A stretch of DNA of 63,748 bases, the filler included, from Globobulimina sp. (Eukaryota), in the NCBI GenBank assembly GCA_003354225.1. It is 37 parts of 37 records of this genome, joined end to end, with 100 filler letters (N's around TTAATTAATTAA, not from the genome) between each part and the next. Parts side by side here need not be neighbours in the genome. Positions count along the whole stretch, not along the records: positions 36,248 to 37,873 come from PIVH01013949.1; 36 more parts are not named here. One strand, 5' to 3'. A model generated the notes under the pieces. It searched no databases, was not told the origin of the DNA, and saw nothing but the letters and a program-made list of their open reading frames with translations. Shown here piece after piece: positions 22,440 to 41,323 of this stretch (the first letter of the stretch is position 1; every line of letters starts with the position of its first letter). The position numbers were made by a program, and so were the translations under genes.

Positions 22440-24065
22440 TGAATGTGTTATCTCAATGAAAAGCGTGGTTCGATCCATGGGTAACGAAGTTGAACCAACC
22501 TCAGTTAGATTCGGCGAACTCATTGTTGAGGGTATTTCAATTCGTTTCTCTGTTTCTTTGTTTCCACCGGCTTTTTTCCCCCATTTACGGCACACATAAA
22601 TGGTAAAAACACAAACGCAGCACAAACAAATTAGAACCACTGCAATTAATACAATCGAAATCATAAATGAATCTGAGCCAGCAACAAAATTAGATTTAGA
22701 TTCATCAGTATATTGCGATTTTGATGGGTTTGCAGTCGGTGCTTTGCTTGGATTATATGTTGGGTTTAAAGACGGACTCTTTGTTGGTATATTGGATGGG
22801 AATTTTGACGGAAAATATGATGGTGAATTGGATGGCAAATTTGATGGGAAATTTGATGGAAAATTTGAAGGAAAATTTGTTACAAATCTTGATGGAGAAT
22901 TTGAAGGAAAATTTGATGGAAAACTAGGTGGATTTGATGGGGAATTTATTGGTGAATTTGATGGTGGATTACTTGGATTGAATGTGGGTATATTTGATGG
23001 TGAATTACTTGTCATTGTAGGAGCATTTGATGGTGGATTAGTTGGAGAAATAGAAGTTGACATAGATGGGTTATTTGTTGGTGTTAATGTGCTGTCTAAA
23101 CATGTTAAAGTTAACTTGGAATCCAATGATTTCCCAGAACATTCATTCCCGACTTTCTTTGGTTTATTCACGGTGATTGTATAAGAAGTTCCAGCGGAGA
23201 GTGAGTCGGGAACTAACGGTCTGTCGCTAATACACGGCAACCAGTTCGCACATATTTTATCTTCTGTCCCTTGACACGATCCAAGAGAACCATACATATC
23301 AGAAATCTGTAATATTTCATCACTGACCGCATCATCATTATCAATATCTAGATGTTCAAAACTGATGGCAGGTTGTTTACAATCAGAAGCTATTACATTA
23401 AACGTAACATCATAATATATATTAGCTATGTCACAATCCACTATGCTGTCTGCTATGATTACTTCCTTTGATAAAGACAGCTTTGGATTTATATCGATAT
23501 CATTACAATATCGGGTTGGATCCGTACCACAAAGTGTCCATTCATCGAACATGCAAACCAAGCTCAATTCCGCCCGCATACTCATACCCGAACAGTCAGC
23601 GTCAGCCCTAACAGTAGCTGGTTTAAGCACTGTTTGTTTTGAACATAAACGAAGTTGTTACAGTTGATGGATATTATAAATTTTCAAACCTGTGATGTTA
23701 TATGAACCACCAGCAGTGATTTCATTCATTGGTAATAGCAAACTGCTAAAACAATACAGCCATTCCGAGCATAGTCCATTAGAGGTTCCTTGACAGCTTG
23801 CAATTTCACCATTTGCATCGGAAATGACAAGCGCTTCATCCAAATCTTCGTTATCTGTGTCTTTAAATCCAAAACTTATGGCTGGCCGCTTACAGTCAGT
23901 ATCTATGGCGGTAAAAGTAACCAAATGATAGGAATCCACGCCGGAGCTGAAATCGATAAGTCGTACTTCCGTGGATGTGATGGCCTGCGGGAATGTAAAT
24001 ATGTTCACATCGTAACACAATCGATTTGTACCACATTGTACTGTGCTGTATGTCCATTGAATTGA
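22440..24065 (-). CDS. Type I surface protein with Cys-rich repeats, Pro/Ser/Asn stalk and TM; partial, intron near 23630-23690
   Basis: Repeated DCK.PAISF...SCQGT...C..W..C domain; (PSNF/PSNP)n; TM ISIVLIAVVLICLCCVCVF. Confidence 0.8.
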
Positions 24066-35785: not shown

Positions 35786-36811
35786 AAGAGGTACCTTTAT
35801 GTGGCAAGGTTTCAGTTTTAATGCAAAACGTGCGGTCGTACAATAGAGTTAACAATTTGATCTTCCTTAAACATTTGCAAATTCGTTTTTTAATTGTTTT
35901 AAAACTGAATCCTTGCCCCATACCGATACCTCTTTTAATACATTTTTGATTCATTGTTTTTTTGCAATTTCAATTTTTGACACTTTATGCAATTAATACT
36001 GGTTTTTGATCGAAATGTTTGTACAAGATCTTTATTAACTGTTGCTTTGTTAATATTATGTATTGTATGGTATACATTATTGATACTAACATTTGTTTGG
36101 TGTAATAATGATAAATATAAATATGAATGGAAAGGACCAAAAGCAATNNNNNNNNNNNNNNNNNNNNNNNNNNNNNNNNNNNNNNNNNNNNTTAATTAAT
36201 TAANNNNNNNNNNNNNNNNNNNNNNNNNNNNNNNNNNNNNNNNNNNNTCCCAAGTCTAGACCCAATTCAGAATGCTTTTAACTGGACCTCGTCAGTAGAC
36301 TGCTAAAAGCATCGAAGCTCATGAATAGCCAAAAAAGGTTAAAAACACTTTTTTAGACAAAATTCACTATTCTACTCTTAAAAAAATTTTTTTAAAAAAT
36401 AAATATTTAAATACCTATTATGGTACCTGCAAATTAGTGCTATGGTTAATTTGAAAATTAAAATTATTTTTATATGTGAGTGTCGAAAAAATCGAAGTTT
36501 TATTAAGAAAATTAAAAAAGTGCGTCGTCGTCCCTTTTATAGAGCCATAATAAAACACAAATACTTAATGTTTTACTTGAATTGTAGAGGAGTTTGCTTC
36601 ATCTGTTTCTTCTCCTTCAGTACGATTCCTTTTTGTAGGAGCCATCACTTTTGAATGGACGTACAGGACAGATAAAATAATAGAATGACGTTATTTTTCT
36701 AAAACTTTTCTTCAAAGTTTTCCTGAGTTGCTAGTTTTGCAATAGATCTGATAACGAATTTCTTATAGCAAAACTATAGTTATTCTGTACCCATTGTTTA
36801 TTTTTCATTAA

Positions 36812-37003
36812 TTTGTAGCCAAGTCTCTGTTGCCTGCTGGGGAAATAGTTTATCTATTTGATTTTACTTGGTTTATATACGCAAACACACGCCACATTGG
36901 TCGATTTTTAATTGTTTGTAGCCATGCCTCTGTTGCTGGGGAGTAGTTTATCAATTTGATTCCACTTAGTTTATATACGCAAACGTATGCCACATTCGTC
37001 TAT
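36812..37003. repeat. Two diverged direct repeats, period about 103 bp
   Basis: tttgtagcca..tctgttg..gctgggg..tagtttatc..gtttatatacgcaaac..gccacatt at 36812 and 36915. Confidence 0.9.
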
Positions 37004-37011
37004 GCTTAGAT

Positions 37012-37095
37012 TAACACCACTCACCCATTGGGTGAGTAAATAACACCGCTAGCATAAAGCTAGTAAAATAACACCGCTAGCATAAAGCTAGTAAA
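37012..37095 (-). repeat. Three tandem 28-29-nt hairpin units
   Basis: TAACACC-[ACTCACCC att GGGTGAGT]-AAA, then 2x TAACACC-[GCTAGC ataaa GCTAGT]-AAA. Confidence 0.92.
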
Positions 37096-37105
37096 TTTAG
37101 TTGTT

Positions 37106-37873
37106 TTATGAAGTAAGTTTTGCACAAAATTTAGCTTTTTTAATTTTATTGTCCAGTTTAAATTTAAGCAATAATGGACTATATGCTGTGGCGAACTTGT
37201 AAAACATATGAGTCATATTTACCTTGTTATAGCCATTTTTTGATAATGTGTCAATTAGCTGCTTAACTCTAATTTCAAAATCATTTAAATTGTTACATAT
37301 GCGTGCCATTCTAATCAGCTGTGAATATAGTACTTTATATCCCATTGAACTATGTACATTGCTATCAGCAAAACCATATCTGACAACATGAAAATTAAAA
37401 TCATCAGTTTTATTATAAACTGCAATTCTTTTGTTATCTGACTTTAAGGTAATCTGTATATCTAAGAAACAACTTTCATATGCTGATTTTGCAGTGTTTT
37501 CCAATGGCAAGCATGCTGGATAAATAAGTTTAGCATATTCTAGAAATTTTGAACAATTCAGTGATAATATATCGTCAATATATCGCATAGTATGTGTCAT
37601 TGCTCTAGCCAAACTGCTATTTTCGTTTTTAGTCAAAAATACATACTCCAACATGCTAAGTGTTAAATCTGCGATAAGTGGACTGGCATTCCCACCCATT
37701 GGAACACCACATGTTTGTCTAAAGTGAAAACCGCCAAATAAAACATATGTTTCATCGATAACATCCATAATTAAAGATTTGACTTCATTTCTGTCAAGTA
37801 TTATAATTTTGGTTCCTTCAGATTGATCTGCATAGTAAACATTGTTGTATGAAATTATCACAAATCTTTTATT
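37106..37873 (-). CDS. Penelope-like reverse transcriptase, C-terminal part; no C-terminal GIY-YIG
   Basis: FRQTCGVPMGGNASPLIADL, MRYIDDIL, CFLDI, YNKTDDFNF, SQLIRMARIC, NGY. Confidence 0.93.
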   Translation of the reverse strand, partial: NKRFVIISYNNVYYADQSEGTKIIILDRNEVKSLIMDVIDETYVLFGGFHFRQTCGVPMGGNASPLIADLTLSMLEYVFLTKNENSSLARAMTHTMRYIDDILSLNCSKFLEYAKLIYPACLPLENTAKSAYESCFLDIQITLKSDNKRIAVYNKTDDFNFHVVRYGFADSNVHSSMGYKVLYSQLIRMARICNNLNDFEIRVKQLIDTLSKNGYNKVNMTHMFYKFATAYSPLLLKFKLDNKIKKAKFCAKLTS

Positions 37874-37973
37874 NNNNNNNNNNNNNNNNNNNNNNNNNNN
37901 NNNNNNNNNNNNNNNNNTTAATTAATTAANNNNNNNNNNNNNNNNNNNNNNNNNNNNNNNNNNNNNNNNNNNN

Positions 37974-38426
37974 AAAAGAATACAAATCATTTTTCTTTAT
38001 GATCATTAAACCATGGCAATTGGCATAAATCTGCTTGGTATTTGATACCATGCTCTCCGTTTCAAATAATTGCGTCCATTCAGTCAACTGACGTTTATCA
38101 CAAACCACAGTTGCAAGGATATTGCTGTTATTCTTGCCAATGCCAAATAACTGATATTTGGAAAAGAAGTCAGATATCAGCGTTTCGATTTGCATTGGAA
38201 TTTTTAGGCTAAATTCACATTCTATTACCTGCAAATAACTTGATATGATGCGTTCTTTATTTCTGCAGAATGAATATATTCTCCTTCTTTTCTTTGATTG
38301 TTCAACAACAAAGTCATTGACATTTCGCCCCCATTCGTCGACATCTCGTTGCCAGCTTTTGAGCGCTTCATCTATTCTGTTGAGCTCTTGCTGTACATTT
38401 AAACTGTTACTTTGGCAAATGCCCAT
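37974..38426 (-). CDS. RCC1-repeat-like protein, N-terminal part
   Basis: MGICQS start; LFGIGKN and NDLYSF RCC1-like blade starts. Confidence 0.55.
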
Positions 38427-38478
38427 ATATAGCTTTAAGTTTTTGAAATAGTCTTTTTTTTTGCCACTACCATACAAA

Positions 38479-39598
38479 ATGATGAGAAGATTCCTCCGTC
38501 CCCTTCGCACAGTATCACTACAATTGAAAAGATATATTCAAATTCGTGCCATTCGCACATTACACACCCATACCACACTCAGTATTTCATCCAGCACCAA
38601 ACGATATTTCTCCGCAGCCAGCAAAAAAGAACTGACCTCCACGCCACACGGTGAAGGCAAAGATTTCTTGGATGCGACACGTAAAACCTTAGAGAAAACC
38701 GGTGCCATATTGGGTTTATCCAAAGACAAAGTCGAAGCATTAACCCATCCCCGCGTAGTATTCAAATTTGCGTTCCCGTTCCGCGACGATGCCGGAGACT
38801 GCCATACCATTCACGCGTACCGCTCACAACATTCTCATCACAGACTACCCTGCAAAGGCGGCATCCGCATGGATGAAATGGTCGACTTAGAAGAAACCAT
38901 CGCATTGTCCATGTTAATGACGTGGAAATGTGCAGTATTAGATGTGCCATACGGCGGTGCAAAGGGCGGCATCAGAGTGGATCCGCGAAAACTGAGTCCC
39001 TCCGAAAAAGAGCGCATTGTCCGCGCCTATACTGCAGAATTAGTGTCGTTCCAAGGCATCGGCCCCGCCATCGACGTGCCGGCACCTGATATGGGCACAG
39101 GGCCGCAGGAAATGGCCTGGATTCGCGACACTTATCAGTTATTACAACGGCACGACATCAACGCCGCGGGAGTGGTGACTGGCAAACCGGTGGCAGTGGG
39201 CGGCATTGACGGCCGCAATGAGGCTACGGGTTTGGGCGTTTATTATGGCATTCGACACTTAATGGCAAGTATCGACAAGTTCCCACTGACAAAATTAGCT
39301 CCGGGGCTGTCCAAAGCGAATACGATCGTGATTCAGGGCTTTGGCAATGTGGGCTATCATTGTGCCAAATATTTCGAGCCAGAAACGACTGTCATTGCCA
39401 TTGCAGAATACGACGGCTATGTTTTTAATGAGCGCGGGTTGGATATCACTGCCCTTAAGAAATATTATGACGACAATGGCACCATTTGCGGCTTTGATGG
39501 TAATGGGACGAAGACTGTGTTGCAGAAAGATGTGACGGCGGATAATGACCCGTTGGCCATCGAGTGCGATATTTTGATTCCTGCGGCAAAGGAGTTGG
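38479..39598 (+). CDS. GLUD1: Mitochondrial NAD(P) glutamate dehydrogenase, partial
   Basis: Transit peptide; HRLPCKGGIR, VPYGGAKGG, DVPAPDMGTG, GRNEATGLG, QGFGNVG. Confidence 0.96.
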
Positions 39599-41174: not shown

Positions 41175-41323
41175 TGAACATATTTATATATCACAATATG
41201 ATCACAAAGCTAGGTCACAATTGCATATATGATCATATTTATACATATCACAATATGATCACAAAGCTATGTTACAATTGCATATATGATCATATTTATA
41301 TATCACAATATGATCACAAAGCT
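41175..41323. repeat. Tandem 55-57-bp repeats containing ATATGATCAC and the palindrome ATATGATCATAT
   Basis: Units start at about 41175, 41230, 41287 and run into contig end. Confidence 0.92.

Follow-up and report, generated by a model that had tools for sequence, protein, structure and literature searches.

Tandem hairpin units with an exchanged stem directly after a Penelope-like reverse transcriptase ORF: a candidate cDNA-initiation module

Directly behind the stop codon of a reverse transcriptase (RT) fragment in an assembly of Globobulimina sp. (GCA_003354225.1) lie three short hairpin units with constant flanks and, in the third, a different stem. The question raised by this locus is whether the units form an RNA signal of a Penelope-like element (PLE) or are an ordinary repeat of its untranslated region (UTR). 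The choice of the RT start on PLE RNA is known for one vertebrate element only, and for the clade with an N-terminal endonuclease and no hammerheads an RNA signal has not been described so far; a 28-nt module with an exchangeable stem would be an easily testable candidate for such a signal and would be of interest for RT-based insertion tools. If the array is simply a palindromic minisatellite, it reflects ordinary UTR repeat turnover.

The window, by which we mean the whole 63,748-nt stretch of DNA that was analyzed, is an artificial concatenation. Seventy-two runs of exactly 44 N, paired around 36 TTAATTAATTAA linkers, split it into 37 pieces of ~1,625 to 1,627 bp each, joined by N44-TTAATTAATTAA-N44 and apparently ordered by size; because these are 37 unrelated contigs placed end to end, gene neighborhood across the linkers is meaningless. 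GC content along the window is 26 to 42%. The cassette and the RT share one contig of 1,626 bp (positions 36248 to 37873). All results on the cassette come from one element copy at one locus with two distinct unit sequences; a DNA repeat search, tblastn with nine PLE proteins, and a motif search found no second copy of the PLE in the window.

The RT reading frame and its stop

On the minus strand, positions 37109 to 37873 encode the C-terminal 255 amino acids of a PLE RT, from the palm motif YIDD through the thumb, as identified by translation, the RVT_1 model, and comparison with relatives; a TAA stop codon follows at 37106 to 37108, read from the minus-strand sequence and supported by the ends of the relatives. 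At 37873 the frame breaks off because the contig ends there (filler occupies 37874 to 37973), which is not a natural 5' truncation. This copy starts at RT motif C, and the EN, CxC linker, IFD, and DKA/DK regions fall upstream of the contig end. The RVT_1 match to the 255-aa ORF is weak (E = 2.5e-4, 21.3 bits, under the Pfam cutoff of 29.6). Related proteins comprised 36 longer sequences at E <= 1e-3 among 960 candidates and 27 of 217 candidates of similar length at E <= 1e-20; in a representative library, 5,873 relatives were found at E <= 1e-3 and 184 at E <= 1e-30. Full-length relatives (800 to 1,000 aa) are 38 to 48% identical to the window RT over 84 to 100% of its 255 residues, which align with the last ~250 residues of these proteins (e.g., 747 to 992 of 995); the only closer relatives are three short fragments (P0069, P0089, and P0181) at 70 to 75% identity. 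An N-terminal GIY-YIG domain with the RT toward the C terminus was present in eight of nine full-length relatives scanned, and the nine top relatives that were inspected all share two features, a Cys-rich CxxC-type motif that precedes the GIY-YIG core and a CxxC within it. When 18 sequences were aligned, the relatives terminated no more than a few residues away from the TAA, with co-linear ORF ends. These homologies establish that the ORF belongs to a Penelope-like RT and ends at its natural stop, both of which the first-pass annotation had assumed.

The architecture of the relatives places the ORF, by sequence comparison, in the permuted-domain PLE clade (N-terminal GIY-YIG, Naiad/Chlamys), and the thumb region of its PLE-type RT ends the ORF, as it does in that clade. 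Judged on the CxxC motifs of the relatives and on the distinctions drawn in PMC8557442, the element appears Naiad-like rather than Chlamys-like. Other readings of the stop were rejected: a readthrough or frameshift stimulator at the TAA is ruled out by in-frame stops 4 and 7 codons later, and a ciliate-type code through the TAA is ruled out by the identical end point of the relatives and by long ORFs elsewhere in the window that are intact under the standard code.

Layout and folding of the cassette

The first-pass annotation described hairpin units on the minus strand beginning 10 nt after the stop, and the sequence reads so. Behind a 10-nt spacer (AACAACTAAA, 37096 to 37105), unit 1 (U1, 37069 to 37095) reads TTT-A-CTAGC-TTTAT-GCTAG-C-GGTGTTA; its 5-bp stem pairs CUAGC (37091 to 37087) with GCUAG (37081 to 37077) around the loop UUUAU, and GGUGUUA follows a single C, at 37075 to 37069. 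A single linker T at 37068 separates U1 from unit 2 (U2, 37041 to 37067), which is identical to it (stem 37063 to 37059 and 37053 to 37049, GGUGUUA at 37047 to 37041). Both units were recovered from the sequence itself, from Tandem Repeats Finder (period 28, 2.1 copies, 100% matches, 37038 to 37095), from folds, and from a motif search, in which the 24-nt unit core had just two sites in the window at up to three mismatches, U1 and U2, with 0 expected. Unit 3 (U3, 37012 to 37040; sequence, folds, and random-core control) reads TTT-ACTCACCC-AAT-GGGTGAGT-GGTGTTA, with ACUCACCC (37037 to 37030) pairing with GGGUGAGU (37026 to 37019) around the loop AAU and GGUGUUA at 37018 to 37012. The claim that this third stem differs in sequence yet pairs perfectly over 8 bp was correct: it has 8 Watson-Crick pairs, to which sense RNA adds 2 U.G pairs. 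The 6-bp ACUAGC/GCUAGC stem that had been given for the first two units has to be shortened to 5 bp; the sixth, outer pair is A.C on the sense strand and a G.U pair on the opposite strand only. Common to all three units are the flanks, 5' UUUACU and 3' AG(Y)-GGUGUUA, whereas the apical part is CACCC-AAU-GGGUG in U3 versus AGC-UUUAU-GCU in U1 and U2. Of the 10 positions in the 5' arm and loop start of U3, ACUCACCCAA, 9 are A or C; the arms of U1 and U2 are not AC-rich.

The 3' arm of U3, GGGUGAGU (37019 to 37026, minus strand), also fits the eukaryotic 5' splice-site consensus, G/GUGAGU, and its partner arm would mask the site. This match is probably a coincidence; PLEs are known to retain introns (PMC8557442).

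In a 106-nt sense RNA, the three hairpins are present in both the MFE and the centroid folds, so that the predicted template RNA contains stem loops; the RNA folds at -28.5 kcal/mol (z = -2.1), and 8 of 200 shuffles were as good. Folded alone, U3 reaches -13.8 kcal/mol (z = -3.4; 1 of 200 shuffles as good), and U1 and U2 each reach -6.4 kcal/mol (z = -1.7 with 13 of 200 shuffles as good, and z = -1.3 with 19 of 200, respectively). The antisense 87-mer gives z = -7.1, with 0 of 200 shuffles as good. The evidence on the strand is mixed, as the sixth U1/U2 pair exists in the antisense only and the extra U.G pairs of U3 in the sense only. Taken over its full 331 nt, the 3' region shows no more structure than shuffled sequence does (z = 0.15).

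Perfect hairpins of at least 8 bp were listed 25 times in the window versus 16.0 ± 4.6 in simulations, and those of at least 7 bp 68 times versus 54.2 ± 8.9. By itself, a perfect 8-bp hairpin is no rarity in so AT-rich a window; the signal is therefore the arrangement, two self-complementary cores between homologous flanks, and no single hairpin. When random cores of local composition were set between the fixed flanks, 1 of 20,000 reached the energy of U3 and 648 of 20,000 that of U1. Random cores are rarely this stable, and self-complementarity has therefore been kept in both unit types despite their differing apical sequence: the exchange of stems between U1/U2 and U3 is genuine, and a random core would be very unlikely to give it. 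Since U1 and U2 are the same, the cassette holds two independent unit sequences and one swap event. Two broader claims of the earlier reading thus stand in part. That structure was kept without sequence agrees with the swapped stem and the random-core result, and applies to two sequences at one locus and one swap event; that simple slippage is not the origin agrees with the exchanged core of U3, but not with the 100% identity of U1 and U2, which is what slippage or duplication gives.

Related elements and the remaining 3' region

A related-DNA search with a small alignment as the query yielded two loci, L001 and L002, from 30 candidate stretches; tblastn against plasmids and phages found no related PLE DNA. 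Both loci carry full-length PLE ORFs with an N-terminal GIY-YIG on contigs binned as bacterial metagenome-assembled genomes (MAGs), labeled Maribacter (L001) and Halanaerobiales (L002); eukaryote-type PLEs in bacterial MAG bins are most simply explained as eukaryotic contamination. L001, 40% identical to the window RT at the amino acid level, contains a full-length element repeated head to tail every ~5.27 kb and has an extra upstream ORF of 214 aa that matches no Pfam family. Partial tandem insertions (pseudo-LTRs) are typical of PLEs; in the window, the element occupies one 1,626-bp contig with no second copy.

The 3' UTR of L001 contains two ~105-nt repeats with four GAGGA-UUYAY-UCCUC hairpins, among which one G.U pair replaces an A-U pair and no double compensatory change occurs. 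A 24-nt hairpin unit is duplicated there in tandem (1.9 copies, 100% matches), and the sense strand folds with z = -2.2 (5 of 200 shuffles as good) versus z = -1.1 (35 of 200) for the antisense. L001 is thus a second, distant element in which a short hairpin unit has been tandemly multiplied early in the 3' UTR. Its likeness to the window units, as far as sequence can tell, is one of form and not of homology, the unit sequences being unrelated: the unit pattern of the window was not found in L001 or L002, and a covariance model of the L001 hairpins had no match in the window cassette at E <= 10. An AUUUACU string shared by L001 and the window in a MAFFT alignment was rejected as a sign of homology, as it forms the loop in L001 and the flank and stem base in the window; the miss of the covariance model likewise speaks against homology of the hairpins. 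L002 (45% amino acid identity) has no comparable tandem hairpin array after its stop, and its sequence runs out at the contig end in at least 75 consecutive T.

In the window, ~860 nt of contig follow the stop. Repeat searches identified two tandem ~98-nt repeats, 81 to 82% identical, directly after the cassette on the minus strand (36800 to 37008), a pair analogous to the ~105-nt repeats of L001. They are probably further 3' UTR of the element, the alternative being flanking DNA. Each repeat contains a small hairpin (36975 to 36988 and 36877 to 36890), and three substitutions between them keep pairing through G.U. We rejected these hairpins as conserved structure: their folds do not stand out from shuffles (z about 0), and 90% of cells still pair when the partners are shifted by 2 columns, so that pairing here is not evidence. 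Farther along the same strand, a short ORF (36427 to 36645) begins at an ATG at 36645 to 36643 (MAPTKRNRTEGEE...) and runs into GTAAAAC at 36576; together with TTTGCAG at 36433 to 36427, this could delimit a 150-nt intron, and the spliced frame stops at once. The ORF may belong to the host or to the 5' region of a next copy of the element.

An Rfam scan of the contig at E <= 10 gave six weak matches, none to a hammerhead or to another curated self-cleaving ribozyme model, and no described family covers the cassette; a scan of L001 and L002 at E <= 1 gave no matches, to hammerheads or other ribozymes. The Naiad/Chlamys clade is reported to be without canonical hammerheads in its 2021 description (Craig et al., PMC8557442), and the same text reports that these elements also carry 30- to 40-bp tails and that several Chlamys families are lengthened by tandem repeats. 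The absence of a hammerhead from the contig fits this reported lack, and the cis signal of these elements is as yet undescribed. The terms "hairpin" and "stem-loop" each occur 0 times in that description (PMC8557442), and the literature searched contained no report joining Naiad, Penelope-like, and stem-loop; a tandem stem-swappable module behind the ORF is likewise absent from PMC8557442, from PMC11167929, and from the literature matches listed. Within these limits, the motif is as new to PLEs as the first-pass annotation had supposed: the clade is already known, as is stem-loop initiation in one PLE, and what is new, at one locus, is a tandem stem-swappable module directly after the ORF.

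Possible roles of the cassette

We read the cassette as an RT-binding and cDNA-initiation module of the element, with a rough probability of 0.35, because the RT of the PLE Poseidon starts in a stem loop and Naiad/Chlamys elements have tails. In this reading, the 3' UTR of a permuted-domain PLE would begin with the cassette (~85 nt), whose three tandem copies of a ~28-nt stem-loop module would most likely act as a cis signal in the element RNA. The element's own RT would bind a hairpin and start cDNA internally, at or beside it, and the repeated units would offer adjacent alternative starts ~28 nt apart. The hairpin sequence would be free so long as its pairing was kept and the constant GGUGUUA followed. 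The cassette would then correspond, in this clade, to the stem-loop initiation sites from which the 30- to 40-bp "tail" of canonical PLEs arises. We infer that the RNA form of the cassette matters rather than its DNA form, that the RT binds it and starts cDNA there, and that the 3' boundary of the element coincides with the units or is close to them.

The in vitro precedent of Poseidon, published in 2024 (Frangieh et al., PMC11167929), has made such a recognition or priming signal more plausible. In vitro, the purified RT of the Poseidon element PAc from Anolis begins cDNA synthesis within its template at two neighboring sites of an AC-rich stem loop; what lies between the two sites is the 30- to 40-bp tail found at PLE insertion ends (PMC11167929). 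The initiation stem loop of PAc is located 111 to 118 nt inside the ORF start, beside a hammerhead (PMC11167929). The window element resembles PAc in having a PLE RT with a GIY-YIG endonuclease (here known from relatives), a stem loop in the template RNA (here predicted), adjacent sites tens of nucleotides apart, and, in U3 alone, an AC-rich arm; the unit spacing of 28 to 29 nt is close to, yet below, the published 30 to 40 bp. It differs in that the cassette comes after the stop codon and not near the start of the ORF, in a clade without hammerheads, and in that its units are explicit tandem repeats with a constant GGUGUUA; initiation would be attributed to them by analogy. With the Naiad/Chlamys elements, as described in PMC8557442, the window element shares an RT C terminus that ends the ORF, the lack of a canonical hammerhead, and tandem repeats in the UTR, and relatives of its RT share the N-terminal GIY-YIG; unlike the elements in that account, it has a candidate hairpin signal, and its host looks like a rhizarian protist, whereas Naiads are described there from invertebrates.

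An initiation module fits the stem swap, the AC-rich arm of U3, the unit spacing, the absence of a hammerhead, and the parallel in L001. Against it stand the single element copy with its two distinct unit sequences, the position behind the stop, the weak and non-AC-rich hairpins of U1 and U2, the mixed evidence on the strand, the ~200 nt of repeat downstream, the unstructured 331-nt region, L002 without an array, the miss of the L001 covariance model, and the identity of U1 and U2.

Outside PLEs, a 3' stem-loop in the UTR is recognized by the element's own RT in "stringent" LINEs (e.g., eel UnaL2) and in R2; these are non-LTR elements that prime at their extreme 3' end, and the stringent LINEs also have a short repeated single-stranded motif next to this stem-loop. 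The cassette is like these systems in combining a 3' UTR hairpin with a short repeated single-stranded motif, with recognition by the RT being a proposal here, and unlike them in that its RT is telomerase-related, its 28-nt units directly follow the stop, and at least 200 nt of further repeat lie downstream. It also resembles the hammerheads of canonical PLE pseudo-LTRs as a small structured RNA in a PLE untranslated region, but no hammerhead model matched in the contig (E <= 10) or in L001 and L002 (E <= 1). A more specific proposal, which we regard as quite improbable, is that in hammerhead-less permuted PLEs a hairpin followed by single-stranded GGUGUUA after the ORF would serve as a telomerase-like boundary and start site, with multiplication of the module creating the tail starts and the stem freely swappable. 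If this specific proposal is true, it would give the Naiad/Chlamys clade its first defined cis-acting RNA element and would link PLE priming to the template-boundary logic of telomerase RNAs.

The best of the alternatives, a serious competitor with a probability only slightly lower, is a neutral minisatellite, in which a short palindrome in a fast-evolving UTR was duplicated by slippage or unequal exchange and has no function, its palindromic cores arising and spreading mechanically, e.g., by snap-back or inverted duplication. The 100% identity of U1 and U2 is what this predicts, and tandem repeats are common in these UTRs, with the 98-nt pair here and the 105-nt and 24-nt pairs in L001; they are also reported to lengthen several Chlamys families (PMC8557442). 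Perfect hairpins of 7 to 8 bp are just mildly enriched in the window over simulation, both strands of the cassette fold, as they would for any DNA palindrome, and the hairpins of L001 and of the window have no detectable homology. However, the homologous flanks enclose two different cores, each of them self-complementary, at a level for U3 reached by 1 of 20,000 random cores, whereas slippage copies sequence and does not swap in a different complementary stem; moreover, the two diverged elements have their hairpin units in the same place, near the beginning of the 3' UTR and directly downstream of the ORF.

It is unlikely that the cassette is a signal of another kind, either an element for transcript 3'-end formation, stability, or localization or a DNA site for homing by the GIY-YIG endonuclease, in which case insertion into existing copies would build the tandem arrays typical of PLEs. 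Each hairpin lies between a U-run and a U-rich tail, and the contig has three terminator-like sites, all in U1 and U2, versus 0.5 ± 0.7 in shuffles; the scan uses a bacterial consensus, however, which has no known meaning in a eukaryotic nuclear element. In addition, ~200 nt of L001-like, 3' UTR-like repeat follow the cassette, and transcripts therefore probably continue beyond it. For a DNA site it counts that the palindromes, as DNA, fold just as well whichever strand is taken, and that the Penelope endonuclease is reported to need the tail for recognition and cleavage (as summarized in PMC11167929). An assembly artefact, in which errors in putting together a low-coverage, highly fragmented genome would have produced either the duplicated unit or the connection between cassette and RT, is highly improbable: the window does consist of ~1.6-kb contigs, and tandem and inverted PLE structures are known to trouble shotgun assemblies (PMC8557442), but the unit copies are exactly in register and a diverged third unit comes after them, a pattern that collapse or expansion errors do not produce, and the ORF is uninterrupted right up to the cassette.

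Other contigs of the window bear on the host and contain further repeats. A glutamate dehydrogenase gene with an N-terminal presequence-like stretch lies at 38476 to 39597 on the plus strand (contig 37974 to 39598); among named homologues, a transcript from Ammonia, a foraminifer, is closest at 70% identity, and other eukaryotic entries reach 78%. A foraminifer-like rhizarian is thus the probable source of the assembly. If the PLE contig comes from the same organism, it would represent a Naiad-like PLE outside the animals of the original Naiad description; the PLE contig might instead be contamination rather than DNA of a foraminifer-like host. An ORF at 37974 to 38537 is on a separate contig from the cassette, in unrelated DNA of the same assembly. 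At 22744 to 23016 (plus strand), an array with a 12-nt period, made up of 14 copies of 60 nt that overlap and are TTTGATGGNAAA-like, probably codes for a peptide repeat of 4 residues. At a contig end, positions 41180 to 41293 (plus strand) hold two tandem 57-nt units, 91% identical, that overlap a low-complexity ORF.
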